IMG/VR virus record: IMGVR_UViG_3300032218_003147
Location: 1 to 50,728 of that record
DNA length: 50,728 bases
Strand: one strand, 5' to 3'
From: a virus
Lineage: Duplodnaviria > Caudoviricetes
Below, piece after piece: positions 25,415 to 38,386 of this stretch. Position 1 is the stretch's first letter. The number at the start of each line of letters is the position of its first letter. The position numbers were made by a program, and so were the translations under genes. Below the pieces are notes generated by a model. That model made no database searches. It saw only the letters and a list, made by a program, of their open reading frames with translations, and was not told the origin of the DNA.

Positions 25415-25708
25415 TTATGATGTAAGATACTCGTTACCGTTAACCTCTCCAAGTTCGGATATCCCTGTTAGACCCAACTCCTGCAGGGATACTTTGAGTA
25501 ACTTACATGTATTTTGTATGTCAACTAAGTTAAGGGGAATCAACTTAGAATCTGCCATGTAAATAATATAATTAGTTAAATACATTAATAGAGATTCATT
25601 GACATATACATTCTCTTTTATCATATGTGTTGCTAGAACTGCTGGAGATATTCTTGAATTCCCCAGTCCTGCTGCTATCTTTTCATGAAGTTTCTGTTCT
25701 GCTATCAT
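25415..25708 (-). CDS. Hypothetical protein
   Basis: Coupled operon, GAGGA RBS. Confidence 0.6.
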   Translation of the reverse strand: MIAEQKLHEKIAAGLGNSRISPAVLATHMIKENVYVNESLLMYLTNYIIYMADSKLIPLNLVDIQNTCKLLKVSLQELGLTGISELGEVNGNEYLTS

Positions 25709-26079
25709 GTAGTTTCCTCTCCACTGGATTCTAGCACATCATCTTGGTACCCGTCAACTTCTAAGGATATAATAAACTGTTTATCCATTAGCCAATCACG
25801 TACATGTTCATTTAAATCTTCAGGTCCGTACTCCAGGGAGAAGACGGGATTGGTCCAGAGTTCATCCCATACATCATCAATAGAATAATCAGGGTTAGCA
25901 ATAGTCTCTGAAGGGTCATCTAAGGACATAGAAGCATATTCAGTTGTAATTACATCCCAGACATATAGCCAGACAAGAGGTAGGCCAACAGGCATTTCCC
26001 CAAGCTTGGAAATCATTTGATCGAGTTCAGCACGTACATCATTTCCACGAACTTTTTCTTGTAGGTCTATATCATTCAT
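25705..26079 (-). CDS. Acidic hypothetical protein
   Basis: Coupled operon. Confidence 0.6.
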   Translation of the reverse strand: MNDIDLQEKVRGNDVRAELDQMISKLGEMPVGLPLVWLYVWDVITTEYASMSLDDPSETIANPDYSIDDVWDELWTNPVFSLEYGPEDLNEHVRDWLMDKQFIISLEVDGYQDDVLESSGEETT

Positions 26080-26347
26080 TGCGAAACCTTTCTTCTAACT
26101 CTAGTAGGATGTCTGATATTGTTTCAACTTTACCTTCTAAATAATGATATGTGGGTGCGTCAAATAAAGGTGAATTTGCAGATAGTTCTTCTTCTAGTTC
26201 ATTCTTCTTATCAATAAGGTGTCGTAGAAATGATTCTATGAAATCAATTGAATATTGATTCTCGCATTCCCCGCAAGTTACATCTGAGTCTTGATATGGT
26301 TGAGATTTACCACATGACATGCACCATGATTCATCATGCATTCCCAT
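26072..26347 (-). CDS. Zinc-finger hypothetical protein
   Basis: CMSC...CGEC. Confidence 0.6.
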   Translation of the reverse strand: MGMHDESWCMSCGKSQPYQDSDVTCGECENQYSIDFIESFLRHLIDKKNELEEELSANSPLFDAPTYHYLEGKVETISDILLELEERFRNE

Positions 26348-26594
26348 TTAGTTCCCCCTTCGCAAACGCAATTGCATATGTAAGTGCATATAGTTCAGCA
26401 TATGTTTCCGTAACGCCTTCCCAATACCTGCGTTCCATAGAGTCCATTGCTTCTTCTGTTTCTTCTTCTTGTTCAACTGCAAGTATTAATTGTGTTTCTG
26501 CTTCAACCATTAATGTCTTAAGGTGACCGTGCATAATATCTGCACCGTCCATTCCTAATTCGATTTGCTTTTGTAGATATGGGTCTAGCGCCAT
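26334..26594 (-). CDS. Hypothetical protein
   Basis: Coupled operon. Confidence 0.6.
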   Translation of the reverse strand: MALDPYLQKQIELGMDGADIMHGHLKTLMVEAETQLILAVEQEEETEEAMDSMERRYWEGVTETYAELYALTYAIAFAKGELNGNA

Positions 26595-27325
26595 TATAAT
26601 TGAACCTTTCTATATTCAGGGACTTTGGTTTCCAAGTATACCTTATGGGTCTGACATTCTGCTACAGCCTCTAGGTCAGCCTCTCCCAGCCAGTGACAGG
26701 CACCGCAGATTTCTCCACAGTCATTCTCTTCGCAGTATTCCATTTGGTCAGTGGCGTCGCAATCACGGCATTGATTATCATACCTAGATTCACTAATCAT
26801 TTCACCTCGTAGGAATTCACATTCTCCACCCCAACCAGTCTCTTCCTCATATGAGTAAGTAAATAGTAAATCAGGATATTGTGCAGACAATTTAGAAATA
26901 GCAGGAAAGACGGGAGACCAAGCAGTATTAAAGTTATAATGAATTACTTTGTTATCGCCATTGTCTGCTTCTTCAAAGTTAGTATCAGGATACTTATCAT
27001 CAGATGATACTGCTACATCCCATTTTGTTCCCCATTCACGAACATTAAATGAATACCAATCATCAGTCTTAAATTTAATCTGTTCATCAAATGGAATGGA
27101 AGAATCAGTTTGCTTGTCATATGCTTCCATGTCTGTTGGTTTAATGATATTCCAGAATGCAAAAATCGGGGAAGGATAAAGAACATCCTTTTTCTCTTGT
27201 TGCATAGTAGTAGTATTCCATGAGTCATGAACCATATGGAATGGTTGGTTTAATTGTTCTTTCATTTTAGTTACAGATTCAGGATTACCTTCTATAGTTA
27301 ATCCGTTATATACCCAGTTTGGCAT
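26594..27325 (-). CDS. DUF1281/YubB ferredoxin-like protein with C-terminal Cys cluster
   Basis: MPNW..N.L.I.G, WY......WGTKWD, FNTAWSP. Confidence 0.8.
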   Translation of the reverse strand: MPNWVYNGLTIEGNPESVTKMKEQLNQPFHMVHDSWNTTTMQQEKKDVLYPSPIFAFWNIIKPTDMEAYDKQTDSSIPFDEQIKFKTDDWYSFNVREWGTKWDVAVSSDDKYPDTNFEEADNGDNKVIHYNFNTAWSPVFPAISKLSAQYPDLLFTYSYEEETGWGGECEFLRGEMISESRYDNQCRDCDATDQMEYCEENDCGEICGACHWLGEADLEAVAECQTHKVYLETKVPEYRKVQL

Positions 27326-27352
27326 TGGAGAGTTTTCTTTCTATTAGTAGGT

Positions 27353-27598
27353 TTAGTTATCAAATACTAAAGAGTCATACAGTTCAGGTTCGCCTGTATC
27401 CTCGTTTTTTGTCCATAAATCTATCTGAAAATTACGGCGATATAATTCAGGCTCGCCGTCTGAAATAGCAAAAATCTCCTGCTCAGAAAGATTATCAAGA
27501 TACTGTGTATTTTTGTCGTAGCCATTATCACCGTCAATTTTAACGGAATATACTTTTGTGAACTCGACTGTATAAACGCTATGTGTTATTTCTGTCAT
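27353..27598 (-). CDS. Hypothetical protein
   Basis: GAAAGG RBS, downstream of a motif promoter. Confidence 0.6.
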   Translation of the reverse strand: MTEITHSVYTVEFTKVYSVKIDGDNGYDKNTQYLDNLSEQEIFAISDGEPELYRRNFQIDLWTKNEDTGEPELYDSLVFDN

Positions 27599-27628
27599 GG
27601 TATTACCTTTCGTTGGGTTGATGTATTC

Positions 27629-27650
27629 ATTATAGCAGACGGGACTGACA
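27629..27650 (-). promoter_or_regulatory. PafBC/RecA-NDp-type promoter
   Basis: TGTCAG-TCCCGTCTGC-TATAAT. Confidence 0.8.
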
Positions 27651-27655
27651 AATGT

Positions 27656-27769
27656 CTAGTCCTCATAAGGGGTTATATTACCAGTCAAGCTATTATAATA
27701 TGCCTCTGATTTACAGGCACAATAATAGATCCCTGGAATATCTGAACATAGCCAATGATGTTTATGCAT
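27656..27769 (-). CDS. Micro-protein (37 aa, His/Cys)
   Basis: MHKHHWLCSDIPGIYYCACK...; tightly packed operon. Confidence 0.5.
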   Translation of the reverse strand: MHKHHWLCSDIPGIYYCACKSEAYYNSLTGNITPYED

Positions 27770-27773
27770 TTAG

Positions 27774-27887
27774 TTATGCTCCCAATCCATCAGATTTGCC
27801 TGTTTCAATACATTCTCTACATACATACCAACCGCCTTCAATAGTAATATAATCAGCTAATCCTTCACATATGCAACATTCATTCAT
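27774..27887 (-). CDS. Micro zinc-finger protein (37 aa)
   Basis: MNECCICEG...VCREC; TAATG coupling. Confidence 0.55.
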   Translation of the reverse strand: MNECCICEGLADYITIEGGWYVCRECIETGKSDGLGA

Positions 27888-28045
27888 TAGTCAAAATACC
27901 CTTCTGCCCATAAGCCTTGGAGAAACTCCTGAGCCTTCCAAAGATTATTATATAGCCAAGGGTCATCATCAGAATTCACGGTAGTTATAGCAGACTGAAT
28001 AGCACTAACCATTTCATCTAAATCATTCATAGCATAACCTAGCAT
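27887..28045 (-). CDS. Small protein (52 aa)
   Basis: MLGYAMNDLDEM...GLWAEGYFD; TAATG coupling on both sides. Confidence 0.6.
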   Translation of the reverse strand: MLGYAMNDLDEMVSAIQSAITTVNSDDDPWLYNNLWKAQEFLQGLWAEGYFD

Positions 28046-28197
28046 TATCCTACCTCTATTCCTGCATATTGGGCGATAGTATTTAATGTAATATGAATTA
28101 AACAGTCACAATCTCCGCCATTCATATTTTCCATGTATTCAATGTGTTGTTCGTTGTCCATATATATTTCATTTATTAAATCATTTATTAGGTTCAT
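28045..28197 (-). CDS. Small protein (50 aa), leaderless
   Basis: ATG 6 nt after TATAAT. Confidence 0.55.
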   Translation of the reverse strand: MNLINDLINEIYMDNEQHIEYMENMNGGDCDCLIHITLNTIAQYAGIEVG

Positions 28198-28203
28198 GTG
28201 ATT

Positions 28204-28225
28204 ATTATATACTAGACCACTGACA
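28204..28225 (-). promoter_or_regulatory. PafBC/RecA-NDp-type promoter
   Basis: TGTCAG-TGGTCTAGTA-TATAAT. Confidence 0.8.
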
Positions 28226-28365
28226 AATTTAGGTCATATCGTAAAGTCCAGCGATCTCCAGGGATATATCGTAAGTATCGTAAAGGTTATTTTAAGATAG
28301 ATCAAATGTATAATTTATCTGATATATCAGGGGGCCCCCGCAGCTTTGCAATTGCAAAAAAAATA

Positions 28366-28393
28366 TGAACCTTTTATAGTCATGTTCAGGACT
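28366..28393 (-). ncRNA. H-type pseudoknot motif, copy 2
   Basis: AGTC-C-TGAAC-AT-GACT-ataaaag-GTTCA. Confidence 0.65.
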
Positions 28394-28412
28394 TTTACCA
28401 GCGAGGGTAAAT

Positions 28413-28751
28413 CTATTGTGCTTGTGAATATTTTTCTATAAATGCATCAAATGTATAAGGATTTCCGTCTACACTTACAGTAAAATCAGTGAAGTCAATT
28501 TTTGTATGTTCATAACTTTCCTCACCACCATTTTCATCTGCATAAATTCCATAACCAGTTTCTGAGTCATGGTCTGTTTGCAGTGCATTAAATAAAATAC
28601 GAGTTGCATACCCATAGTCTGTCCAACGAGGTTTTGCTTTGACTAAGGCATTTGCTAAGTCAATAAGTTTTTCATCTCCACCCCAATGTGAGTAAAGAGT
28701 TACATAGCAACCTTCGCCTTGCTTGACAACAAAGTTTGTTCTTGAACCCAT
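28413..28751 (-). CDS. Hypothetical phage protein
   Basis: MGSR.NF......LYSHWGG..., RW.D..YATRI. Confidence 0.65.
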   Translation of the reverse strand: MGSRTNFVVKQGEGCYVTLYSHWGGDEKLIDLANALVKAKPRWTDYGYATRILFNALQTDHDSETGYGIYADENGGEESYEHTKIDFTDFTVSVDGNPYTFDAFIEKYSQAQ

Positions 28752-28874
28752 TATATTCCTGCTCCTATTCCTACTGCTATTAAGATTGCCAATACGATTA
28801 TGATAAATAAAGTGTCCATGTTCCTATCCTATCAGAAAGAGGGGGACTTATCAAATCCCCCTCTCTCTATTTAA

Positions 28875-29297
28875 TTAGAGATAACGAGCAACGGCATTAT
28901 ATGTCGAAGTATTAACTGTTTCCTCATCTGTCATTTGCAGAATACGGATAGCGTTTTGGATTTCCTCTTTTTGCTCACGATAAGTGCTTTGGTGCATTGT
29001 TACAAAGTCCTTTTCAGGTTCTGTTGGCAAACCCTCTTTAGATACTGTTATATCAAAGTCAATGTTCAGGGTGTTATTCCATGAACGAAAGTTAGTGCGG
29101 AAGTTTTCTGCCTTCTTGATATTTGCTACTGCAAAATCAGTAAGTTCCTTGACCCACTTCTCATACGCCTTTTTATACTTTACTTCGTTTGCTTCTTGTG
29201 AGGCGTAGTCTTTTTCTAACTTCGCTAGTGCAGTTTCTAGTGCCTTGATTACCTTTGGTGTTGCGATTTTAACTGAGATTGCTTTTCCTCTAGCCAT
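28875..29297 (-). CDS. Hypothetical protein
   Basis: AAAGGA RBS, downstream of a motif promoter. Confidence 0.7.
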   Translation of the reverse strand: MARGKAISVKIATPKVIKALETALAKLEKDYASQEANEVKYKKAYEKWVKELTDFAVANIKKAENFRTNFRSWNNTLNIDFDITVSKEGLPTEPEKDFVTMHQSTYREQKEEIQNAIRILQMTDEETVNTSTYNAVARYL

Positions 29298-29335
29298 TTT
29301 GTTTCCTTTTCTTTAGTTGGGTTGTTATTAGTAGT

Positions 29336-29357
29336 ATTGTATCAGAGGGGTCTGACA
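29336..29357 (-). promoter_or_regulatory. PafBC/RecA-NDp-type promoter
   Basis: TGTCAG-ACCCCTCTGA-TACAAT. Confidence 0.8.
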
Positions 29358-29359
29358 AA

Positions 29360-29587
29360 TTAGGCTTCATGTCGGGGGTGGTCTACCCTGACATTTTTAG
29401 TGATAGATGAGTTAATTATAGTTCCTTGAAAGGCTACGATCATTTTTGCTAATCTCATCTCATCAGTAGAGGTCAGCTCGATTTGCAGATTATCTAGCAC
29501 TTCATATTCCACACCGAATTGCATAGCCTTGCCCAACCCGTACCCCATTTGGGCACGGGACGGGACTTGTAGAGTAACTACTGCCAT
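29360..29587 (-). CDS. Hypothetical protein
   Basis: Coupled ORF. Confidence 0.55.
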   Translation of the reverse strand: MAVVTLQVPSRAQMGYGLGKAMQFGVEYEVLDNLQIELTSTDEMRLAKMIVAFQGTIINSSITKNVRVDHPRHEA

Positions 29588-30237
29588 TAGTAAGCCTCTT
29601 GGACATTAGCAACTTCATAGTGTTCAACTGAAATATCACCATGTTGTGAGTCTGCAAATAGATTATCATTAAGTTCAGACTCGAAATCAAAGTCATCAGT
29701 TAAAGATACTTGCATTGTGCCTGATACATGCAAAGTTGCTTCCCAGTTGATTTCCTTAGTTAATTCAATATCAAGGATTTCAGCAATAGATGTTAAAGTA
29801 TCTTGGTCATCACTATCAGTAAAGTTGTCAATGATAAGAGAACGAACAGAGTCAATCTTATTCTGAAACTGTAAAGCAATTCTAGCATTTTGGCGGGAGT
29901 TGTGAAGTTCATATTCTATATTACGAACCTTATCAGTTATGTATTCAGCATCAGAGAAATCCTTAATTACTTTATATGTAACTAATAAATCTGGATTATA
30001 TTTTTCTGCATCAGATAGAGGCAGGTTGTTCATTGTTGTTTCCATATCTTGTCCTTCTTTCGTTGTTGAGGGTACTATTGTAGCAGGTGCTACTGACAAT
30101 AATGTGCATATAGAGTTACATGGACAAGTTAATTGCATCACACCATTTGGCCAACCATATCCATCTTTATATGTATATTCAATTAGGGCATCACAGTCTC
30201 CTGTGCATACCCATGTACATTTGCTATATTTAGTCAT
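29587..30237 (-). CDS. Cys-rich N-domain plus acidic C-domain; nested second start at 30045
   Basis: Leaderless ATG at 30237; internal promoter and RBS before ATG 30045. Confidence 0.65.
   Translation of the reverse strand: MTKYSKCTWVCTGDCDALIEYTYKDGYGWPNGVMQLTCPCNSICTLLSVAPATIVPSTTKEGQDMETTMNNLPLSDAEKYNPDLLVTYKVIKDFSDAEYITDKVRNIEYELHNSRQNARIALQFQNKIDSVRSLIIDNFTDSDDQDTLTSIAEILDIELTKEINWEATLHVSGTMQVSLTDDFDFESELNDNLFADSQHGDISVEHYEVANVQEAY
30077..30098 (-). promoter_or_regulatory. PafBC/RecA-NDp-type promoter (intragenic)
   Basis: TGTCAG-TAGCACCTGC-TACAAT. Confidence 0.75.
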
Positions 30238-30243
30238 AAGAGT

Positions 30244-30265
30244 ATTATATCGTAAGCCACTGACA
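30244..30265 (-). promoter_or_regulatory. PafBC/RecA-NDp-type promoter
   Basis: TGTCAG-TGGCTTACGA-TATAAT. Confidence 0.8.
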
Positions 30266-30330
30266 AATTCCCCCGCCTGAAAATGCGGGGGCCCCCGCAT
30301 ATTTATGCACCAGCTTGAATATTTATTTTG

Positions 30331-30404
30331 CGATTGCGATGGGACTTGAACCCACGATCTCTACCGTGACAGGGTAGCGAATTAACCAACTATTCTACGC
30401 AACC
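30331..30404 (-). tRNA. tRNA-Asp(GTC)
   Basis: Reverse complement: acceptor GGTTGCG/CGCAATC, CTACC-CTGTCAC-GGTAG, GTGGG-TTCAAGT-CCCAT. Confidence 0.9.
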
Positions 30405-30411
30405 AATAAGG

Positions 30412-30439
30412 TGAGCAGTTTATACACTTACTCAGGTGT
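30412..30439 (-). ncRNA. H-type pseudoknot motif, copy 3
   Basis: ACAC-C-TGAGTA-A-GTGT-ataaac-TGCTCA. Confidence 0.65.
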
Positions 30440-30444
30440 TGCGA

Positions 30445-31473
30445 TTATTTCGCTAGTGCTAAGACTTGCTTAACAATTTTATTTTTCTCAGCAGTTACAA
30501 CAGGGTCGAAACCACTTGCACCTGCCATGAGAGAGTCACCAGTCTTGCGAGCAGTGCGGTAGTAATCAAGGCGTTCAGTAAGTGCATTAACTACACCCCA
30601 TGCAGTACCCTTGATATTAGCATTTGTTGGTGAGTTATGATACAACTCATCAAGGAGAACAACTTTGTTTTCCCATTTCTTAAGAGAACCCTTAGAGTCC
30701 TTCTCAGGCTTTGGATACATAGCGTTAATAATTTGAGAGAACTTTTTGTCATTGACTTCAACGGCAAATAATTCTTGTGCTTGCTTCTCGAACTCATCAG
30801 CATAAGCAAAAGTTAATCCGAGTGCTTGTCGTGCTTGTGCAATTTTGCCATCAACAGTTTGTGTGTGGCGTATCTTGAAAGACTGCTTTGCCTTTTTCAT
30901 AGCAAAATTAAGTGTATTCTGACACATAACACGAACGGGGGTGATAGCAGATTGAACTGCAACAGAACCATCATGGCTAGTCCATACAATTAAGTATAGT
31001 TTAGTTTCATCATTGACACCATTAGGGTCAAGAACAATAGTGCGTGGGATTGACATTGTACCAAATACGATATTGCCACCCTTTAGAGAACCAGCAGACT
31101 CCCAAAATACATCTGAGTTTCCATCATGTAGGTTATCAGCAAAAGAGAATAATTCCTCATTTTGTACTTCTTTGTAACGAGAACCTACAACTGAGAGAAC
31201 ATCAGTTTGTCCAGCAACATATGGGTTATCACGAATAACTAATTGGTTATCCTTGATTGAACTCCAGTTTTCAGGTAAGTGTTCGGCAACAGGTTGTAAG
31301 CGAACATTCCAATTAGATAGTTTAGCACCATCTAACATTTGTGCAGTAGTGACTGCTTCATCTTGATTAAATACTTTATTAGCAAAACTATGCCATGCAG
31401 GTACTTGTCGGAGATTTACAGCAAGCGAAACAGAACCATTTTCTACTTCGGATTTATGAGCATTATTTGTCAT
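30445..31473 (-). CDS. DUF932 / TIGR03299-family phage-plasmid protein
   Basis: PAWH, VG.RY..VQN, ESAGSL.GG, SHDGS, TPVRV.C.NTL, IRHT, GTAWG..NA..E..D. Confidence 0.88.
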   Translation of the reverse strand: MTNNAHKSEVENGSVSLAVNLRQVPAWHSFANKVFNQDEAVTTAQMLDGAKLSNWNVRLQPVAEHLPENWSSIKDNQLVIRDNPYVAGQTDVLSVVGSRYKEVQNEELFSFADNLHDGNSDVFWESAGSLKGGNIVFGTMSIPRTIVLDPNGVNDETKLYLIVWTSHDGSVAVQSAITPVRVMCQNTLNFAMKKAKQSFKIRHTQTVDGKIAQARQALGLTFAYADEFEKQAQELFAVEVNDKKFSQIINAMYPKPEKDSKGSLKKWENKVVLLDELYHNSPTNANIKGTAWGVVNALTERLDYYRTARKTGDSLMAGASGFDPVVTAEKNKIVKQVLALAK

Positions 31474-31504
31474 TTTTACTTCTTTCTATTTGTTTGATTA
31501 TCTG

Positions 31505-31526
31505 AGTATAACATATGGGACTGACA
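31505..31526 (-). promoter_or_regulatory. PafBC/RecA-NDp-type promoter
   Basis: TGTCAG-TCCCATATGT-TATACT. Confidence 0.8.
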
Positions 31527-31593
31527 AATGTCTATCCGTAAAGTCCAGCAACCTTACGTAATATCGTAAATGTCCTTTTTGTCCTACGTAATG

Positions 31594-31654
31594 CCTACGT
31601 AATGATATGTGATAAATATCACAGCGTGGCGACACGCCCGAGTGCGGGGGCCCC
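31594..31654. repeat. 61-bp exact direct repeat, copy 1
   Basis: Identical to 35267-35327. Confidence 0.9.
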
Positions 31655-31770
31655 GAATTTATTAGCTCGATCCACGCATTATATCTATTAAGTATAAAAT
31701 AAAATAAATGAATGAACCAATCATCAATACATTAACTATATGGGCAAACAATTTCATTTTATTATTCTCC

Positions 31771-32493
31771 TTATTTTTTAGTGGCACTAAATCGAATGTC
31801 TGCTTTTCCATATACGCATAATTTACATGATACGCATGCAGAACCATTAGTTGAGATAAGCGGAATCTGTTTATTATTTTCAGGACATTTTGCACCAACC
31901 TTGCCAGTTAATTCTTTCATTTTAGATTCAGTTGCAGCGAATGTTTTTCCCAAATATGCTAATTTAATTCCATGTTCAGTTTTTAATTCTGCGCCAATAG
32001 GTGCGTTATCATCATCAGTAGAATAATAAAGTGAAAGATTAGGGATATTCTTTAAAATAAGTGCAGCAGACTTTACACGTGTATAAACCCAAAATTGTAC
32101 ATTAGGGCGATTAATAATTACATATTGCCATGCACGAGCATAGGTATCGTTAAAGAAATCCCCGTCCCAGTGGATACGGAATAGCATAGGGGCATTTTTC
32201 TTTTCACAATCAACAATGAACTCATCAATCATGTTTTCTAATAAGTCAACCATAGTTGGCTCATCCGCATTTTTTAATAAATCCCAATTGTGTAATAGAT
32301 TAGCCTTTACGCCTTTGAATAATTTTTCAAGTTTTCCCGCATAGCAGACACTTTCGCATATGCTTGTGGCGCCAGGGCATGAGAATTCTTTACCTGCAGG
32401 GAGACCGAAGGTGTTAGCAATTGTGGCAGTCTTGCCATTAGGAGAGACAGCATTAGCAACCTTTCTATCGTTAGAACGTTTTAGTTTAGTCAT
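31771..32493 (-). CDS. GP88-family protein
   Basis: FGLPA...SCPG....C...CYA, FRIHWDGDF, FWVYTR, C..CKLC; start moved to the ATG after GAAAGAAGG. Confidence 0.8.
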   Translation of the reverse strand: MTKLKRSNDRKVANAVSPNGKTATIANTFGLPAGKEFSCPGATSICESVCYAGKLEKLFKGVKANLLHNWDLLKNADEPTMVDLLENMIDEFIVDCEKKNAPMLFRIHWDGDFFNDTYARAWQYVIINRPNVQFWVYTRVKSAALILKNIPNLSLYYSTDDDNAPIGAELKTEHGIKLAYLGKTFAATESKMKELTGKVGAKCPENNKQIPLISTNGSACVSCKLCVYGKADIRFSATKK

Positions 32494-32524
32494 GAGTTGA
32501 CCTTCTTTCATTGGAGAGGAGATA

Positions 32525-32546
32525 AGTATAGCAGGCGGGACTGACA
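32525..32546 (-). promoter_or_regulatory. PafBC/RecA-NDp-type promoter
   Basis: TGTCAG-TCCCGCCTGC-TATACT. Confidence 0.8.
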
Positions 32547-32798
32547 AATTAATTGTAAGACTTAGCGCATATAGTACAGATCGAATAGTTAGTGCAATAG
32601 CAATCGTTAATATCGGCCATTAGAAATAAATCCCTTCAGTAGACATATCTAAATCATTATAGATTTTTTCCTCTTGCCACTCAAAAAAATGAGTAGTGCA
32701 CATAGTAGACGGACGGGAATCAATAGACGATAGACCCATGAGATTAGCATAACAGATATTACATGACATAGTTGCCTCTTTCTTTTGTTGATATGGGA

Positions 32799-32820
32799 AT
32801 TATAGCAGGTTAGACTGACA
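32799..32820 (-). promoter_or_regulatory. PafBC/RecA-NDp-type promoter
   Basis: TGTCAG-TCTAACCTGC-TATAAT. Confidence 0.8.
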
Positions 32821-32905
32821 TACTCAAACGACACGCCGTAATTTTTAGTGTGATGAATATCACAGGCGGGGGCCCCAGCTTGATCTGCAGGGGCCCAAAA
32901 AAATG

Positions 32906-32936
32906 TGAGCCGTTTACGTGGTCAATGCTCAGGACC
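32906..32936 (-). ncRNA. H-type pseudoknot motif, copy 4
   Basis: GGTC-C-TGAGC-ATT-GACC-acgtaaacg-GCTCA. Confidence 0.65.
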
Positions 32937-32970
32937 CTTGCCCTTTATATTTAAACACCGATGGCGGGTG

Positions 32971-33010
32971 TGAGTAGTTTATTTGATTACTTGCTCTTGC
33001 TCAGGAGCAA
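32971..33010 (-). ncRNA. H-type pseudoknot motif, copy 5
   Basis: TTGCTC-C-TGAGCA-A-GAGCAA-...taaac-TACTCA. Confidence 0.6.
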
Positions 33011-33017
33011 TTCTATT

Positions 33018-33200
33018 TTATTCTACGCCGAGATTTTTCATGCACTCTTCCCAAAATCGGTCCGAGTCAAATCGTTCATTATCAGCGAAAAACATTTCAG
33101 AAAAATCATTTACTAAATCCTCATAAACTTCTATGCGGATTTCAGTTGCATAAGAGTTTAAGATTTCAGCGGTGGCTACATAGTCTTTGCGGGTCATCAT
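33018..33200 (-). CDS. Small protein (MMTRKDYV family, paralog A)
   Basis: Paralog of 36270-36443. Confidence 0.7.
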   Translation of the reverse strand: MMTRKDYVATAEILNSYATEIRIEVYEDLVNDFSEMFFADNERFDSDRFWEECMKNLGVE

Positions 33201-33270
33201 TTGCTAATCTCCCATGCTACAAATGCAATAGTTAAAAGCATGAATGCTGGAATAATTAAAAGCATTATCA

Positions 33271-33477
33271 TTAGTGAACGACCTTTAATACTGCATAAGA
33301 ACTTCCTGCGTTAATTTCATCAAGAATTGGTGAAAGACGGGGAGCGATTAAATCTTTAAGCATTCCTTCAAGCATTGTTACCTGAAAGTCATGAGGTAAA
33401 GATAAGAGTTTTTTAGCAACAGGGTGAGTTTCATCAAACTCTGTTACAAACTCTAATTTATGTACAACAGTTTTCAT
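33271..33477 (-). CDS. Hypothetical protein
   Basis: AAAGGA RBS. Confidence 0.6.
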   Translation of the reverse strand: MKTVVHKLEFVTEFDETHPVAKKLLSLPHDFQVTMLEGMLKDLIAPRLSPILDEINAGSSYAVLKVVH

Positions 33478-33506
33478 TTATTTGTCCTTTTCTTTTTGTT
33501 GGTTGG

Positions 33507-33534
33507 TGAGCCTTTTTGTAACTTGCTCAGGTTA
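33507..33534 (-). ncRNA. H-type pseudoknot motif, copy 6
   Basis: TAAC-C-TGAGC-AA-GTTA-caaaaag-GCTCA. Confidence 0.65.
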
Positions 33535-33581
33535 GTTCCCGCCACTTATTTAGAGTCGCTGTACGTTAGCGACTTATTTGA

Positions 33582-33737
33582 TTATAGTTTAACGCTAGTG
33601 TAGCGTTCATCTCCATCTACATCAAGTAGCAGAGTAGTAGTGCGAGCATTAACTGGAATAATCTCCTTGATTGTTCCTGTTACCTTGCTTGATTGAGTGG
33701 TGAATAAATCACCGATTTGATAAGTGTTTGTAGCCAT
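33582..33737 (-). CDS. Small SH3-like beta protein (51 aa, not in ORF track)
   Basis: MATNTYQIGDLFTTQSSKVTGTIKEI...; GAAGGA RBS. Confidence 0.65.
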   Translation of the reverse strand: MATNTYQIGDLFTTQSSKVTGTIKEIIPVNARTTTLLLDVDGDERYTSVKL

Positions 33738-33773
33738 TTTTTTCCTTCTTTCGTTAGGTTGTTTATAGTAGAT

Positions 33774-33795
33774 ATTCTACCATAAGGGTCTGACA
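33774..33795 (-). promoter_or_regulatory. PafBC/RecA-NDp-type promoter
   Basis: TGTCAG-ACCCTTATGG-TAGAAT. Confidence 0.8.
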
Positions 33796-33808
33796 AATAT
33801 TGCCAAAT

Positions 33809-33952
33809 TTAGAGGATTTCGTCTGTGTCGAAATTGGGTATATCTATAAATAAAGACTCATCTTGTTCTTCATCTTCTTCTTCCATTTCCCAAGTTAGAA
33901 AGTCGCTTGGGTGTAACTCTGATTTAATTTCCCATGAGAAAGTGTATGACAT
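33809..33952 (-). CDS. Very acidic micro-protein (47 aa)
   Basis: MSYTFSWE...EMEEEDEEQDE; AGGA RBS. Confidence 0.55.
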   Translation of the reverse strand: MSYTFSWEIKSELHPSDFLTWEMEEEDEEQDESLFIDIPNFDTDEIL

Positions 33953-33983
33953 TTTATTTCCTATTCTTTTTGTTGATAGTAGT

Positions 33984-34005
33984 ATTATAGCATTTTGGTC
34001 TGACA
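33984..34005 (-). promoter_or_regulatory. PafBC/RecA-NDp-type promoter
   Basis: TGTCAG-ACCAAAATGC-TATAAT. Confidence 0.8.
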
Positions 34006-34134
34006 TTTATCAACTTATATCTTAATAATCTCATATAGTAAGACGCTCAACCTATGTGATAAAACTCACACCGATACGCCTTGACACGACACGCCCGAAC
34101 GGGGGCCCTAGCTTGATCTGTGGGCCCCCGATTT

Positions 34135-34248
34135 TCAATCAAATAATTTATTTTTATATTTTTGTTTTCGATTATATTTTTTCTTTGATGGAATTGCAGT
34201 TGCAGCATTACTACGACGCAATTCTTGTATGCGTTTTACTTTTTCCAT
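34135..34248 (-). CDS. Basic micro-protein (37 aa, not in ORF track)
   Basis: MEKVKRIQELRRSNAATAIPSKKKYNRKQKYKNKLFD; GAGGA RBS. Confidence 0.6.
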   Translation of the reverse strand: MEKVKRIQELRRSNAATAIPSKKKYNRKQKYKNKLFD

Positions 34249-34252
34249 TAGT

Positions 34253-34525
34253 TTAATCCTCATCATATTCTATCCAGTTTTCCAAGTGGTGTTGTTCAAT
34301 TATTGCATTAGCGGGAGCAGTTTCTTGTCCCCGCCATGATACGCCTTCAGGCAAATTAATTCTCTTAGAATAATCGCCATCATTATATGCATTAATGGCT
34401 TCAATGCATATTGGTACCATAGAATATGGGACGGGGGGATAGTGATTACTACGCAATTGTATAGTGATACTTTGCTCTAGTGACATATCCATAGTAGATA
34501 AGTCATGCGATAAATTATTTCCCAT
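34253..34525 (-). CDS. Hypothetical phage protein
   Basis: L.SNHYPPVP....C..AI, H.L..W. Confidence 0.7.
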   Translation of the reverse strand: MGNNLSHDLSTMDMSLEQSITIQLRSNHYPPVPYSMVPICIEAINAYNDGDYSKRINLPEGVSWRGQETAPANAIIEQHHLENWIEYDED

Positions 34526-34734
34526 TATTTTTCAACGACCTTTCGTCCTTCACGATAAAATACTTTTGTATAGCATTTTAGCGATGGTGTGTATAAATTA
34601 ACTGTTGAGTATTCATCGGCGAAACCCCAATCTACATATTTTGCAAACTCTTTGTGTGCTTGCAATTCATCTGAGTATTGAAAGACATGATTAGGCGAAG
34701 TCGCCTCATCATAGGTTACTGTTATTTTGTACAT
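34525..34734 (-). CDS. Hypothetical protein
   Basis: Coupled ORF. Confidence 0.6.
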   Translation of the reverse strand: MYKITVTYDEATSPNHVFQYSDELQAHKEFAKYVDWGFADEYSTVNLYTPSLKCYTKVFYREGRKVVEK

Positions 34735-34735
34735 A

Positions 34736-34870
34736 TTAGTTATTCCAATCTAGTGTGATACATTCACACTTATTTACAATTATTGTGTTACCTTGCTTTG
34801 ATACTGTTGCAAGGGTGTCGCATTCATCGCAGATAAATACGCCGTCTAGGTTGTCTAGGATATTTCCCAT
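34736..34870 (-). CDS. Micro zinc-binding protein (44 aa)
   Basis: CDEC...CEC; first gene after the promoter. Confidence 0.55.
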   Translation of the reverse strand: MGNILDNLDGVFICDECDTLATVSKQGNTIIVNKCECITLDWNN

Positions 34871-34905
34871 TTAATTAGTCTCGCTTTCTTTTGTTGAATA
34901 ATGGA

Positions 34906-34927
34906 ATTATAGCAGGTAGCACTGACA
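34906..34927 (-). promoter_or_regulatory. PafBC/RecA-NDp-type promoter
   Basis: TGTCAG-TGCTACCTGC-TATAAT. Confidence 0.8.
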
Positions 34928-34929
34928 AA

Positions 34930-35151
34930 TTAGTTAATGTCTACTAATATTGTTGCCCAAAAATCAGGCTTCAAGAATGACCCACTTGTATATTGTGGGC
35001 GTACTTGTATGGCGTAGGCTTCAAAACCTTCACCATAATATAGACCTTCACGCTTTTCAGCATATTGGATAATTCCGTCAATATGTCTGCCTAGTGAACG
35101 ATAGTATTTTCCCTCTAGTAGGGTTGGGATATCATATTTATATGTAGCCAT
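34930..35151 (-). CDS. Hypothetical protein
   Basis: Start moved to the ATG after GAAAGAGG. Confidence 0.6.
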   Translation of the reverse strand: MATYKYDIPTLLEGKYYRSLGRHIDGIIQYAEKREGLYYGEGFEAYAIQVRPQYTSGSFLKPDFWATILVDIN

Positions 35152-35182
35152 GAGTAAGACCTCTTTCTTTTTGTATATGGAT

Positions 35183-35204
35183 ATTATACCATTTTCCACT
35201 GACA
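35183..35204 (-). promoter_or_regulatory. PafBC/RecA-NDp-type promoter
   Basis: TGTCAG-TGGAAAATGG-TATAAT. Confidence 0.8.
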
Positions 35205-35266
35205 AATTCTTGTTACTTGCTAGTAATGTCACAATGTGAGACGCTCACGTAATGTGATAAATATCA

Positions 35267-35327
35267 CCTACGTAATGATATGTGATAAATATCACAGCGT
35301 GGCGACACGCCCGAGTGCGGGGGCCCC
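35267..35327. repeat. 61-bp exact direct repeat, copy 2
   Basis: Identical to 31594-31654. Confidence 0.9.
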
Positions 35328-35475
35328 AAATTTTTATGCACTTTCATGCATAAAAACCTAGATGATCTCAGCTATTTGAAATCTTTAAAAATCAATTCAA
35401 CAATTTTTAAATCTTCATCTCCTAAATTATCAAGCTCGATTGCTTCTACAAATCCAAAAATATCTTTTTCCATTT

Positions 35476-35670
35476 TTAATTCTCCAAACTTTCTAAATAA
35501 TCAGATTCAAAATCTGCTAAGGCACAACGGTATGCGATTGGGTCACACTCTTTTAAAATCTGTGACGGATAAAAAGTCATGTCTGCAATTTTGAAAGTGC
35601 CCCATGATTCATCTAGTGCTTCATCAAAAATTTGCTTTAATTCTAAAGCCTGTTCAAAATCTAATTCCAT
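35476..35670 (-). CDS. Small acidic protein
   Basis: F...LDE......I....FYPS.ILKECDPIAYR; GGAG RBS. Confidence 0.65.
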   Translation of the reverse strand: MELDFEQALELKQIFDEALDESWGTFKIADMTFYPSQILKECDPIAYRCALADFESDYLESLEN

Positions 35671-35826
35671 TTATTTATTTCTCCATTACTCTAAGAATTG
35701 TGTCAAGGTTTTTTTCTGATAGCAAAACCTGAGATGTACCCCATAGACCTGCTAACCATTGGTCTCCATATTTTTCTTTTGCTAGTTTTGAACACATAGC
35801 AATTTTTTCATTTCTTGTCATTTTCA

Positions 35827-36003
35827 TTAGTTAGTTACCTTCCAATTAGTAGCAAACGGCAAGCGGTCAAAATCATCATAGACCCAAAATCGGTCAATGT
35901 TTTGTTCGCAATTTATGCAGAAAGTATATTCTGCATCTTGATGTGACGAGATAGCACTCTCGTTTGGTGTGTGCGTTACGCACTCTTTTGTTAATGTAGT
36001 CAT
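35827..36003 (-). CDS. Small zinc-binding protein (58 aa)
   Basis: C..H.P....TFCINCEQNI; GAAAGGTGG RBS. Confidence 0.6.
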   Translation of the reverse strand: MTTLTKECVTHTPNESAISSHQDAEYTFCINCEQNIDRFWVYDDFDRLPFATNWKVTN

Positions 36004-36038
36004 ATTAAGACCACCTTTCTTTTTTCTTTATGTATGGA

Positions 36039-36060
36039 ATTATAACACGGGGGACTGACA
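36039..36060 (-). promoter_or_regulatory. PafBC/RecA-NDp-type promoter
   Basis: TGTCAG-TCCCCCGTGT-TATAAT. Confidence 0.8.
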
Positions 36061-36113
36061 AATATGCCCGTTTTTCGGGCGTGTCGCAAAACTATTTTTG
36101 TGATATGTATCAC

Positions 36114-36128
36114 CAAACAGATGTTCGA
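36114..36128. promoter_or_regulatory. LexA (SOS) box, one mismatch
   Basis: CAAAC-AGAT-GTTCGA versus consensus CGAAC-N4-GTTCG. Confidence 0.55.
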
Positions 36129-36159
36129 TGTATTCTTTATTTAATTTTTGTATAATGGA

Positions 36160-36181
36160 ATTATAGCAGGGGGGACTGACA
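36160..36181 (-). promoter_or_regulatory. PafBC/RecA-NDp-type promoter
   Basis: TGTCAG-TCCCCCCTGC-TATAAT. Confidence 0.8.
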
Positions 36182-36269
36182 TTTTTGGGTGTTTTTCGGG
36201 CGTGTCGCAAAACTATTTTTGTGAAGTGCGTCACAGGCGGGGGCCCCCAAATTTTTGAGGGGATCTCAG

Positions 36270-36443
36270 CTAGTCCTCCAAGCAAGCAAGTTCAAATTTA
36301 TTTGGTGAAAAGTTTTTATTATCTGCATGAAAAAAATCTGCAAACTCTAAAACTAAATCTTCAAAAACAAATTGGTCTGCAATAAGAGGGCGAAACTCTT
36401 TTAAGATATTCGATACTGCTACATAGTCTTTGCGTGTCATCAT
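36270..36443 (-). CDS. Small protein (MMTRKDYV family, paralog B; not in ORF track)
   Basis: MMTRKDYVAVSNILKEF...FEDLVLEFADFFHADNKNF...C. Confidence 0.7.
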   Translation of the reverse strand: MMTRKDYVAVSNILKEFRPLIADQFVFEDLVLEFADFFHADNKNFSPNKFELACLED

Positions 36444-36734
36444 TTAATTATTCTCCCATTTTTCAATATCTTCAATAAATTTATTTATTTGGTGTTCCAT
36501 TAAATCATCTGCCATAGCGTCAAATTTATCTTCACCTAAGCAAACTAATGCAACACCCGTTGCAACAGTTGCGGAAAGTGTTGCAGAATATTCAAACAAC
36601 AAATTTCCTAATTCTTCAATATCAGCACCACGAGAAACACCAGCAATAATGTCTCTTGCTTTATTTAGCACTACATCATCAACAATAGAACGATTAGAAA
36701 TATCTTTAATAAGATTAGCGGTTTCAAAATTCAT
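36444..36734 (-). CDS. Hypothetical helical protein
   Basis: TAATG-coupled ATG at 36734; GAGGAG RBS. Confidence 0.6.
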   Translation of the reverse strand: MNFETANLIKDISNRSIVDDVVLNKARDIIAGVSRGADIEELGNLLFEYSATLSATVATGVALVCLGEDKFDAMADDLMEHQINKFIEDIEKWENN

Positions 36735-36913
36735 TAGTGTTGCTCCTCGCAATTAGTATAAGGGTCAAATTGGCAAAACATGCAACCCATTTTTTCAAAA
36801 TGGTTTTCGCAATAATAAGCGAATTGGATTTCATCACAACAAATAAATGTCGTGTAGTCAGTTAAATAGTTTTCGTCAATGTGACGCAAAACAAGGGTAG
36901 GATTAGTAGTCAT
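36734..36913 (-). CDS. Small Cys-rich protein (59 aa)
   Basis: CCDE.Q..YYC..H.E.MGC.FC; GAGG RBS. Confidence 0.6.
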   Translation of the reverse strand: MTTNPTLVLRHIDENYLTDYTTFICCDEIQFAYYCENHFEKMGCMFCQFDPYTNCEEQH

Positions 36914-37039
36914 ATTATTTGACCTCTTTCTTTAGTACGGATAGGGCATTGGCAAGGCTTGCTTTACGCTGTGCCTCTACCATTTCTTTATATTCTTCAA
37001 GTGTCATTTTTTGACCTTTCTTTAGTTTCTTATAATGGA

Positions 37040-37061
37040 ATTATAACACAGGGGACTGACA
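37040..37061 (-). promoter_or_regulatory. PafBC/RecA-NDp-type promoter
   Basis: TGTCAG-TCCCCTGTGT-TATAAT. Confidence 0.8.
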
Positions 37062-37170
37062 AATATGGGTACTTTTATCGGCGTGTCGGAATTTATTTTT
37101 GTGATATACGCCACAGGCGGGGGCCCTATACAGGGGATCGCTATATGCAGGGCCCCCAAATTTTAGCGAT

Positions 37171-37287
37171 TTATTTCAGCTGTTTTATTTCTTGAATGAA
37201 ATCTTTTATCACTAACCTAAACATGATAAAGGCGGGAATTGCAATAAACAACTGCACTAGTGTAGTTAATAATCTATTAGTACTCAT
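37171..37287 (-). CDS. Small membrane protein
   Basis: MSTNRLLTTLVQLFIAIPAFIMF; GAAGGG RBS. Confidence 0.5.
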   Translation of the reverse strand: MSTNRLLTTLVQLFIAIPAFIMFRLVIKDFIQEIKQLK

Positions 37288-37517
37288 TAGATACCCTTCG
37301 CTAACATGATACATATACAACCCACAACAATAAAAGTAAATACAATAAACACTATTTAACTCCCTTATATAGATAACTCCATGCCTTACGGCATACCATG
37401 ATTGACTTACAATTATCGCAACAGATAACACCATCACGATTTAACTCTAGGTCATATACATCTATGCTAGTGCTTACTGCACCACACACAGACTTAACAG
37501 ATACAGACATGCTCATA

Positions 37518-37715
37518 TTACTTACCTACTTTCTTATTACCATATAAGGACATATAGCGTTTAACAATAACGCTACCTTTATCCATACCATATTTATTTA
37601 TAAGGTAATCGCATTGTGTTAATGTTAATGCGAATACAGGTTTAGGAGAGTAACCTGCATACTCTAAGCCAAACTCTATGGCTATATCCTTACGGATTTC
37701 GTTAGTGTAGTTCAT
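37518..37715 (-). CDS. Hypothetical protein
   Basis: GAAAGGTGG RBS. Confidence 0.6.
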   Translation of the reverse strand: MNYTNEIRKDIAIEFGLEYAGYSPKPVFALTLTQCDYLINKYGMDKGSVIVKRYMSLYGNKKVGK

Positions 37716-37824
37716 GATGAACCACCTTTCTTTAATTTGATTAGACTTTCTAATCTATTTGCTGACCTGATTATTTGCTTATTACTAAGGCTCACAGGAT
37801 TTCTTATTTAATTGTTATACTGGA

Positions 37825-37846
37825 AGTATAACATCACCCACTGACA
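37825..37846 (-). promoter_or_regulatory. PafBC/RecA-NDp-type promoter
   Basis: TGTCAG-TGGGTGATGT-TATACT. Confidence 0.8.
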
Positions 37847-37899
37847 AATTAGCCCGTTTCTCGGGCGTGTCTACCAATTATTTTTGTGATTTACATCAC

Positions 37900-37914
37900 C
37901 GAACAAGTGTTCGA
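37900..37914. promoter_or_regulatory. LexA (SOS) box
   Basis: CGAAC-AAGT-GTTCGA, matching the actinobacterial consensus. Confidence 0.7.
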
Positions 37915-37946
37915 TTTATTCACTATTTAATTTTTTGTATACGGGA

Positions 37947-37968
37947 AGTATAACAGATAACACCGACA
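37947..37968 (-). promoter_or_regulatory. PafBC/RecA-NDp-type promoter
   Basis: TGTCGG-TGTTATCTGT-TATACT. Confidence 0.8.
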
Positions 37969-38386
37969 AAATCAAGTCGACACGCCGTGTTTATGCAAAG
38001 TATTTATGTGATGTGCACCACATGCGGGGGCGGGTCCCTTTTCGGGCGCACTATTATTTTTTTTAAAAGATAGTTGATATATGTATCATACATGAAAAAT
38101 TTCCATTAACATTTTGATCAAATTGAAAAAAGGGGCGGGAGTTCCCTAGAAATTACAATTATCCAATATTACTATAAGGAATATACACTCTAGATAGCTA
38201 CAATATAATCACAATATAATAAATACAGCGCAATTGGTATGATTTTATAAAAAATAAAAATAAAATCGACGGGAATGTGATCAGAATCCTAGAAACTATA
38301 AATAAACACTTAACATAAGATCATTACATACGTCTAGAATATATTTACATTAGCCAAAATTCAATATTTTGATCAAAAATCGATTT

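Follow-up and report, generated by a model that had tools for sequence, protein, structure and literature searches.

PafBC-type promoters in the probable terminal repeat of a freshwater actinophage clade

What reads the promoters of a roughly 13-kb block of tiny genes that all lie on one strand of an uncultured phage? The block, hereafter the island, belongs to IMG/VR virus record IMGVR_UViG_3300032218_003147 (Duplodnaviria; Caudoviricetes), whose 50,728 nucleotides (nt), hereafter the window, we analyzed in full. This 50.7-kb contig is part of a tailed-phage genome and encodes terminase, ThyX, ribonucleotide reductase, tail proteins, and nine tRNAs. An earlier note on the same DNA had described the island as a series of cassettes bearing sites for host regulators. 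We propose, with a probability of about 0.6, that the island is a direct terminal repeat of ~13 kb whose 18 promoters are read by host RNA polymerase (RNAP) carrying SigA and adapted by PafBC, with CRP and WhiA as predicted co-activators at about half of them. The anatomy is present in the DNA itself; every step of binding and timing built on it we infer. Host alarm and growth signals would then likely switch on some 40 tiny genes, and it is plausible that these promoters let the phage read the state of its host.

The pattern TGTCRG-N10-TAnnnT occurs 18 times in the window, always on the minus strand between 26,635 and 37,968, and not once in the remaining 37.5 kb; our chance baseline, 200 dinucleotide shuffles of positions 25,000–38,200, gives a mean of 0.07 and a maximum of 1. 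The reported consensus of PafBC-activated promoters is tGTCgg(N10)tA(N3)T, whose 5′ part spans −28 to −23; PafB reads the GTC triplet, and PafC binds SigA region 4 (PMC8635444). Single-stranded DNA (ssDNA) is reported as the activating ligand of PafBC (PMC11804915). At the level of motif, the island promoters match the published one, including positions that the search did not force. As in the PafBC-dependent promoters described as RecA-NDp or recA P1-type (PMC8635444, PMC11804915, PMC8223512), they place TGTCRG at −28 to −23, followed by ten free bases and a SigA −10 element, with G or C at −21 and −20. For comparison we assembled a host-type set of 119 metagenome loci in which the same promoter pattern precedes an SOS box (100 of them have at least 60% GC). 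Position −21 is G in 0.55 and C in 0.33 of that set vs 0.57 and 0.36 of the phage promoters, and position −20 is C in 0.47 and G in 0.42 vs 0.52 and 0.43, a preference that the phage keeps although its genome is 37% GC.

The same promoters recur in the relatives of the phage, for which we used 42 uncultured IMG/VR loci fetched by their DUF932 gene, five of them near-complete genomes. All 42 carry −26 promoters, 445 on the coding strand vs a single one on the opposite strand. A spacer of 10 yields 475 coding-strand matches, and no other spacer from 6 to 15 yields more than 50; within the five near-complete relatives, 53 of 66 matches fall in one cluster of 6–10 kb. A stricter form of the pattern, estimated to be present in ~640 IMG/VR stretches, appears almost only in this clade: among the matches listed, 77 of the 81 testable loci (of 160) carry a homologue of an island open reading frame (ORF). 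The predicted start-site geometry is supported by a peak of start codons, since 29 of 687 unique promoters have a frame beginning with ATG at the predicted +1, 15 have one at the next base, and no other position has more than 7. A literature search of titles and abstract openings, subscription journals lying outside it, found no description of PafBC-type promoters on a phage.

Several features of these promoters speak against a strict need for PafBC. Their extended −10 elements are near consensus (T 0.86 and G 0.93 at −15/−14, TAnAAT, A 0.95 at −9), a trait absent from the host-type set. Five of the 18 have a partial −35 element (4–5 of 6 positions matching, at 17–18 nt) and the others none; TTGAC lies upstream of 23 of 411 clade promoters; and ordinary TTGACA promoters, seven of them on the plus strand, are found outside the island. 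Extended −10 promoters can work without −35 contacts. Because theirs are so close to consensus, the phage promoters may fire without an activator. Moreover, the island, which the earlier note presumed to be early or first-injected DNA, need not be expressed first, because the TTGACA promoters outside could fire before it. These features suit a simpler account, to us improbable though the best placed of the alternatives, in which constitutive extended −10 promoters fire at entry and the −26, CRP, and WhiA boxes fine-tune them or ride along as cassettes are copied. Besides the strong TGnTAnAAT consensus, it can draw on TG-extended −10 elements at the same place in Streptomyces phages of cluster BE and on near-identical copies of cassette headers, which indicate homogenization within the genome. 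It accounts poorly for a −26 box held at exactly 10 nt in hundreds of diverged copies, some within coding sequence, for the presence of that box at 15 of the 19 TGnTAnA(A/C)T sites of the island, and for host-like G/C at −21/−20 persisting in an AT-rich genome. Under the PafBC reading, the extended −10 elements would let host RNAP–SigA transcribe at a basal level; PafBC would be activated by ssDNA that appears on or after infection, whether from processed linear ends, breakdown of host DNA, or phage replication; and PafBC on the −26 box would raise all 18 promoters above basal activity.

Some −26 promoters lie within open frames (30077–30098 and 26635–26656 in the window; relatives include L005, L019, and L038). 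A leaderless ORF starting at 30237 runs in frame through the promoter at 30098 into the next gene, giving 216 amino acids (aa) when fused and 152 aa if translation begins at the inner start. Relatives have a short peptide gene whose end runs through a promoter; the counterpart of that gene in the window (36915–37007) has lost the promoter. The 130-nt leader after the promoter at 37846 (37710–37800, minus strand) looks structured and recurs in relative L040.

Is the reader of the −26 box a host protein? The window carries a WhiB gene (15790–16116), reported as a marker of actinobacterial phages (PMC10202952). Its terminase is 58–65% identical to those of Streptomyces cluster BE/BK phages (Stanwilliamsviridae) and 44–45% to those of the Rhodococcus phages Peregrin and Grayson; its ribonucleotide reductase is ~65% identical to those of cluster BE. 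Public runs containing window DNA are labeled biofilm, river, or lake, or are unlabeled metagenomes. From these single-gene identities and local synteny, the phage is very likely a freshwater actinophage related to Stanwilliamsviridae. The cultured freshwater actinobacterium Ca. Planktophila LanE-43, which has a streamlined genome, encodes PafB, PafC, WhiA, LexA, Crp, RbpA, and CarD, with PafB and PafC annotated as a WYL pair (supplementary table rows of PMC10202952). Its PafB keeps residues at the spacing of R50, K52, and R56, and the R46 position would precede the annotated start. Judged by gene content, LanE-43 is proof that such a host exists, without tying the phage to it. Taken at face value, a GTDB scan points elsewhere, with a relative in three bins labeled uncultured bacterium, Methylophilaceae, and cyanobacterium. 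No WYL match was found in the three bin contigs, and a WhiB match only on the 110-kb contig that carries the phage relative; we read all three as misbinned phage DNA.

The reader could instead be brought by the phage: an activator, encoded by the phage or injected from the virion, that mimics PafBC in the manner of MotA/AsiA and may work with the phage WhiB. Here, too, some observations run counter to a host reader. Besides the phage WhiB, Pfam searches of 142 of the 166 ORFs called in the near-complete relative G002 found WhiB, a MerR-type helix-turn-helix protein, and RecA, with no match to CRP or LexA; two of the five relatives have weak helix-turn-helix matches below the cut-off; most island ORFs are without a family; and, judging by the genome-specific GC word described below, one or more of the boxes may be co-evolving with a phage protein. 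We nevertheless think such an activator unlikely, a little more so than constitutive firing, given that none of the five near-complete relatives has a WYL match or a sigma region 4 match over the cut-off (0/5 each), and that the motif, its unforced positions, and its neighbors (WhiA at −42, an SOS box 32–33 nt downstream) follow the anatomy of host promoters. Least probable, by a clear step, is that the true host uses another WYL-family or sigma-adapting protein: sigma adaptation is proposed to be widespread in actinobacteria (PMC8635444, PMC11804915), yet the motif match to PafBC is exact and a freshwater actinobacterium has the annotated PafB/PafC pair. Tyrosine integrase is likewise missing from the five near-complete relatives (0/5, serine integrases lying outside the search), and on this count a temperate lifestyle was rejected.

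The reading that PafBC adapts the polymerase gains detail from the boxes around the promoters. Matches to TGTGA-N6-TCACA, the CRP/GlxR consensus (PMC10187061), with at most one mismatch number 12 in the island (shuffle mean 0.71) and one outside it, and all 42 relatives carry them, at 407 sites. Relative to the predicted start, box centers peak at −54.5, −64.5, −74.5, and −84.5, a 10.5-bp period with R 0.71 (181 boxes, 439 non-redundant promoters), the p-values of this phasing being inflated by shared ancestry. After strict de-duplication R is 0.68 for 68 boxes, and 0.19 when 59 of these are measured from the start codon. CRP with cyclic AMP (cAMP), bound on one face of the helix from −54.5 to −85, would scale output with carbon state.

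The GACAC box of the earlier note, GACACGCC, occurs nine times in the island, four in gene orientation and five reversed, and nowhere outside it (shuffle mean 0.04 per orientation). It is the 8-bp WhiA motif reported for Mycobacterium tuberculosis by ChIP-seq and in vitro, where WhiA binds 42 bp upstream of recA P1 (PMC13473873); the Streptomyces WhiA motif is described as working in either orientation (PMC3781837, PMC10243135). The box is found in 41 of the 42 relatives, with the reversed form, GGCGTGTC, peaking at −42.5 (24 of 97 copies) and the forward form at −49.5 (14 of 52). WhiA at about −42 or −49 would scale output with growth state. A WhiA box near −42, as at M. tuberculosis recA P1, and two island promoters with an SOS-type box 32–33 nt downstream are further likenesses to recA P1-type promoters. 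Boxes near or upstream of the core promoter are also described for CRP/GlxR class I (PMC10187061) and WhiA/WhiB activation (PMC10243135, PMC13473873, PMC3781837), there at −35 promoters, unlike the island. SigA region 4 is bound by WhiB and by PafC alike, so a single promoter may use either WhiA/WhiB or PafBC activation rather than the sum of the two. Two observations weigh against our reading: few host-type PafBC promoters have a CRP or WhiA box upstream (7 matches in 115 loci), and the CRP peaks lie ~3 bp upstream of the class I positions of Escherichia coli.

The earlier note had also counted LexA among four host regulators with sites in the island. LexA-type boxes number one exact and one with a single mismatch (shuffle mean 0.07), and the two are paralogues. 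Their distances from the promoter, 33 and 32 nt, match a secondary peak of the host-type set (21 of 119 at 32–34 nt, many of them homologous loci); exact CGAAC-N4-GTTCG boxes occur in 5 of the 42 relatives, where they do not lie downstream of a promoter. The case for LexA as a fourth input is thus weak, and it is the PafBC, CRP, and WhiA sites that are exact, clade-conserved, and placed like working sites. A further AATCGGACAT-like box is present in the repeat intergenic DNA of soil BE phages (L043, L045) and of freshwater relatives (L002, L011, L033, and others); its reversed form peaks at −57.5 in the freshwater relatives (16 of 59), and it is nearly absent from the window.

The same sites invite the thought, raised in the earlier note, that the island is a sponge, in which the two repeat copies, multiplied by replication, would titrate PafBC, CRP, and WhiA and so blunt the damage response, defense, and division. 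If the block is doubled, each packaged genome would hold ~36 PafBC-type, 24 CRP-type, and 18 WhiA-type sites, and PafBC is cited as regulating mycobacterial phage resistance (PMC12848934, a citing paper). The helical phasing of the CRP boxes relative to the promoter disfavors this role: length changes by whole helical turns are predicted by polymerase contact and needless for a sponge, so activation is favored. The strand bias of the island promoters, and the ribosome-binding sites and genes that follow them, are equally needless for a decoy. As the main function we regard sponging as quite unlikely, slightly more so than a phage-borne activator; as a secondary effect it may nonetheless occur.

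The island is very likely a direct terminal repeat, as the earlier note had supposed, a conclusion drawn from contig depth, a homology edge, and synteny together. In run X1, which may be the source sample, mismatch-free contigs have depths of 18.2–21.4 when fully outside the island (9 contigs) vs 37.3–43.8 when fully inside (4), a ratio of 2.03 among the longest contigs listed; depth here is one figure per contig, not a count of raw reads, and the depth tables hold the longest contig records, with 481 and 91 further records unlisted. Coverage at this level is therefore about twofold over the block, not uniform. Two contigs straddling the borders (depths 25 and 36.2) put the repeat ends at ~25.1 and ~38.1 kb, and extreme baselines widen these estimates to 24.6–25.6 kb on the left and 37.8–38.5 kb on the right. 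Run X2, from a related strain, shows 5.8–9.1 outside vs 15–17 inside (ratio ~1.9, again among the longest contigs listed). Less favorably, the step is weak in run X3 (11.8–12.2 vs 15–16), and run X5 has no usable step; both runs contain relatives and not this genome.

Homology to relatives breaks sharply at 38,121, where identity to the window falls from ~0.78 (45 nt inside the edge) to ~0.29 (40 nt beyond it). The DUF932 protein matches BE genomes twice each, near 1.2–2.7 kb and again at the far end, and GP88 likewise matches twice, within the repeat; the repeats of this cluster are reported as 10–12 kb long (PMC8612146, PMC7650747). The Jay2Jay counterpart of the island is a repeat of 11.4 kb made up of small reverse-strand genes; behind it come ThyX, glycosyltransferase, and ribonucleotide reductase, ordered as in the window. 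As at the left end of the island, TCGTAA is concentrated within the first 700 bp in Jay2Jay and Yaboi. The contig ends of 26 truncated relatives do not cluster at the inferred termini; one of them (L010) ends in the left block, which fits. Four of the five minus-strand GATCAAAA words lie near the inferred repeat ends (25088, 25335, 38119, 38374) and are candidate terminase signals.

The T5 pre-early region and the SPO1 host-takeover module, like the island, join a long terminal repeat to many small genes and many host-polymerase promoters; theirs are strong constitutive −35/−10 types, unlike those of the island. The closer comparison is with the BE repeats of Jay2Jay, Yaboi, and Coruscant (PMC8612146, PMC7650747), which share with the island reverse-strand small genes including DUF932 and GP88, the same flank order, TCGTAA repeats at the left end, and a repeated unit of a hairpin after the stop codon, GC box, promoter, and small gene. 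Unlike the island, they have promoters with a TTG-type −35 and no −26 box, and few or no CRP and WhiA boxes; the island is longer, ~13 kb, with no Lsr2 or HNH gene seen. Promoters in the Jay2Jay and Yaboi repeats pair a TTG-type −35 with TGnTAGACT, and six cultured soil relatives (Jay2Jay, Yaboi, Faust, Magritte, Weasels2, Trina) have 1–4 scattered −26 matches vs 0–5 in the reversed control. A blastn search of the cassette header against cultured phages returned short chance matches only. Because cultured BE phages share the layout and yet use −35 promoters, the layout looks ancestral, and the swap from −35 to −26 promoters looks like an acquisition specific to the freshwater clade. The promoters of the island differ in turn from host PafBC promoters in belonging to a phage without a tyrosine integrase match, in standing 18 to a block ahead of micro-genes instead of repair genes, and in their near-consensus extended −10 elements and phased CRP boxes.

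More tentatively, and with the balance of our judgment against it, the clade, one of abundant lytic freshwater phages, may have rewired its terminal-repeat takeover genes from constitutive promoters to the host ssDNA alarm; PafBC would then be tripped by infection as such, and the damage response of the host would start the phage program, with phased CRP and WhiA sites holding output back in starved or non-dividing cells, a gate on lytic commitment that needs no repressor. Regulators with a WYL domain, PafBC among them, are known to sense damage in bacteria and are linked to anti-phage defense; this clade appears to have turned one into an activator of its own terminal-repeat genes. What would be new is the rewiring of a terminal-repeat block of the BE/T5 type, built of PeSL-like cassettes, to host regulators of damage, cAMP, and cell cycle. 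If true, this would reveal what sets the timing of takeover by lytic phages in slow-growing lake actinobacteria, and it would imply that infection produces ssDNA soon enough to switch on PafBC. The clade also offers hundreds of natural promoters for asking whether CRP and WhiA co-activate a sigma-adapted polymerase. None of the six cultured relatives is a ready test system, because they have only chance-level −26 matches; the promoters could be assayed in M. smegmatis or with purified proteins, making phage culture unnecessary.

How are the parts arranged? All those named in the earlier note lie on the minus strand where it placed them, in numbers far above those in shuffles (Table 1). The full order given in its title, from boundary through boxes, promoter, and genes to pseudoknot, is one layout among several: 9 of the 18 promoters follow a boundary element, 2 come after a LexA-type box with CRP and GACAC boxes of their own, and 7 are bare. 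Among the nine boundary headers, seven have both CRP and GACAC boxes and two have neither; 67 nt of headers 4 and 7 are 99% identical. GGGCCC occurs at 11 sites making up eight boundary elements (shuffle mean 0.89; 0 outside the island), and a ninth GC-rich element, at 38024–38034, is without it. Paired GGGCCC copies fold at −17 to −21 kcal/mol; none scored as a terminator or has a downstream U tract.

GGGCCC as a fixed conserved site was rejected: the 42 relatives hold 21 sites, 0–3 each. It is the position of the boundary that is conserved, and each genome repeats its own GC-rich word there (L001, L009–L012, L017, L022, L024, L026, L030, L031, L034; L043; L045), often followed by a small hairpin, CCCG-loop-CGGG, that is fused to the WhiA box and occurs in 14 of 42 loci. 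This suggests homogenization within each genome; a phage DNA-binding protein or nickase that changes quickly may be what the word follows. The block would be divided, by its GC-rich hairpin boundaries and by pseudoknots at gene ends, into units that are driven separately and can be shuffled. In this the island resembles T4-type PeSL cassettes, units of promoter and stem-loop among non-essential small genes (PMC2839356), and its block order differs between relatives; as described there, PeSLs have strong sigma70-like promoters and proven terminators in dispersed hyperplastic regions. The island has −26 promoters with regulator boxes, GGGCCC hairpins without a U tract, and a single terminal block.

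Table 1. Features of the island and its flanks, in window coordinates.
Feature	Coordinates	Strand	Remarks
Inferred long direct terminal repeat, ~13.2 kb	24950–38122		Depth, right homology edge, Jay2Jay synteny; left end approximate, 24.9–25.1 kb
Flank beyond repeat: small genes and ThyX (minus), then glycosyltransferase and ribonucleotide reductase (plus)	38387–43517		Order as behind BE repeat
Conserved 19-nt motif at right edge of repeat; candidate end or packaging signal	38103–38121	−	28 of 39 relatives with enough flank
Header 1: GC box, CRP box 38007–38022, reversed WhiA box 37979–37986, PafBC-type promoter 37947–37968	37947–38034	−	
Tandem unit: exact LexA-type box 37900–37913 (33 nt past promoter 1), CRP box, WhiA box 37864–37871, promoter 37825–37846	37825–37913	−	
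Header 2: two GGGCCC (hairpin), CRP box 37100–37115, WhiA box 37080–37087, promoter 37040–37061	37040–37155	−	
Header 3: GGGCCC, CRP box 36220–36235, WhiA box 36199–36206, promoter 36160–36181	36160–36248	−	
Tandem unit, paralogue of 37825–37913: one-mismatch LexA-like box, CRP box 36099–36114, WhiA box 36078–36085, promoter 36039–36060	36039–36127	−	
Header 4: GGGCCC, reversed WhiA box 35304–35311, CRP boxes 35281–35296 and 35253–35268, promoter 35183–35204	35183–35327	−	
Bare PafBC-type promoter	34906–34927	−	
Header 5: two GGGCCC (hairpin), reversed WhiA box 34088–34095, CRP box 34055–34070, promoter 33984–34005	33984–34130	−	
Bare PafBC-type promoter	33774–33795	−	
H-type RNA pseudoknot, between genes	33503–33535	−	
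Longer pseudoknot-like variant	32971–33009	−	Outside tested alignment
H-type RNA pseudoknot, then U run, before header 6	32906–32937	−	
Header 6: two GGGCCC (hairpin), CRP box 32849–32864, reversed WhiA box 32830–32837, promoter 32799–32820	32799–32896	−	
Bare PafBC-type promoter, heads GP88	32525–32546	−	
GP88-family protein, 240 aa	31771–32493	−	Also in BE repeat
Header 7, heads DUF932: GGGCCC, reversed WhiA box 31631–31638, CRP box 31608–31623, promoter 31505–31526	31505–31655	−	
DUF932 protein, 342 aa	30445–31473	−	Homologue in terminal repeat of cluster BE phages
H-type RNA pseudoknot, just past DUF932 stop, before tRNA-Asp	30412–30440	−	
tRNA-Asp(GTC)	30330–30404	−	
Header 8: GGGCCC, promoter 30244–30265	30244–30298	−	ATG at predicted +1 (30237), leaderless
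Bare PafBC-type promoter, within open frame	30077–30098	−	
Bare PafBC-type promoter	29336–29357	−	
H-type RNA pseudoknot, then U run, before header 9	28366–28394	−	Stem 2 compensatory change
Header 9: GGGCCC, promoter 28204–28225	28204–28341	−	ATG at predicted +1 (28197), leaderless
Bare PafBC-type promoter	27629–27650	−	
Bare PafBC-type promoter, within DUF1281_C gene	26635–26656	−	
DUF1281_C protein, 243 aa	26594–27325	−	
42 hand-called ORFs (two share a frame), median 60 aa, 34 under 100 aa	25415–37715	−	Nearly all without named family
Intrinsic-terminator-like hairpin closing island transcription	25355–25379	−	11 pairs, 9 G-C, U tail
Conserved non-coding left-end block, four TTACGAAG repeats and two CRP-type boxes	24850–25270 (approx.)	−	Conservation, motif scan

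The pseudoknot pattern occurs five times inside the island (shuffle 0.02) and once outside it, as a small pseudoknot on the plus strand after the Hsp20 gene (12154–12181). Across 36 aligned copies, 97.5% of alignment cells pair, with 55 double changes, a result reached by none of 500 shuffles and compared with 25–37% in slid controls; an independent pattern scan gave 131 unique copies, and in all 131 both unconstrained pairs of stem 1 are Watson–Crick. By this covariation the pseudoknot is a real RNA structure. It is not specific to the island: an estimated ~4,400 IMG/VR stretches contain it, and it lies near a −26 promoter in 22 of 131. In the island, only two copies stand directly before the next boundary, and a third precedes tRNA-Asp. 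Elsewhere it follows a gene end in 92 of 129 and precedes a tRNA in 17 of 139; it may guard the 3′ end of the upstream message. A known ribozyme or Rfam 15 family was rejected, with no covariance-model match in the window or in the 20 of 133 pattern loci scanned, and a full-text literature search with pseudoknot 10-mers returned unrelated papers only. The pseudoknot is widespread in phages of 29–59% GC (L049–L181), in some of which it directly precedes a tRNA, a type III hammerhead-like match (L050, L054), or a DUF2800 RNA (L073).

The micro-genes would be host-takeover cargo, acting on the host. Searches of the island ORFs against Pfam, PHROGs, and the ESM Atlas found no named family beyond DUF932, GP88, and DUF1281_C. 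Compared with 17 full-length relative loci, 13 of the 42 ORFs are present in at least 14 loci and 15 in at most 2, short ORFs being easily missed. Block order varies, with ORFs 18–22 before 8–17 in most relatives and a second arrangement in five. Of the idea that cassettes are conserved while shuffled cargo varies, as in PeSLs, the conservation of cassette parts other than the GGGCCC word and LexA box is borne out, and the differing block order may reflect such shuffling; turnover of the cargo itself is only modestly above that of the rest of the window, 18–19 of 42 island ORFs being kept in the near-complete relatives G001 and G002 vs 30–34 of 54 outside.

Oxidative stress and iron form a strong theme in relative G002 (L182–L187), which encodes at least nine 2OG-Fe(II) oxygenases as well as glutathione peroxidase, AhpC, ferritin, and TauD. 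Within the island, the paralogous 57–60 aa genes at 36270–36443 and 33018–33200 have a homologue in all 17 relative loci and match only unnamed viral clusters in the ESM Atlas. GP88 (31771–32493) is found in one of the 17 freshwater relative loci and is 48–54% identical to genes of BE phages and of ~50-kb mycobacteriophages.

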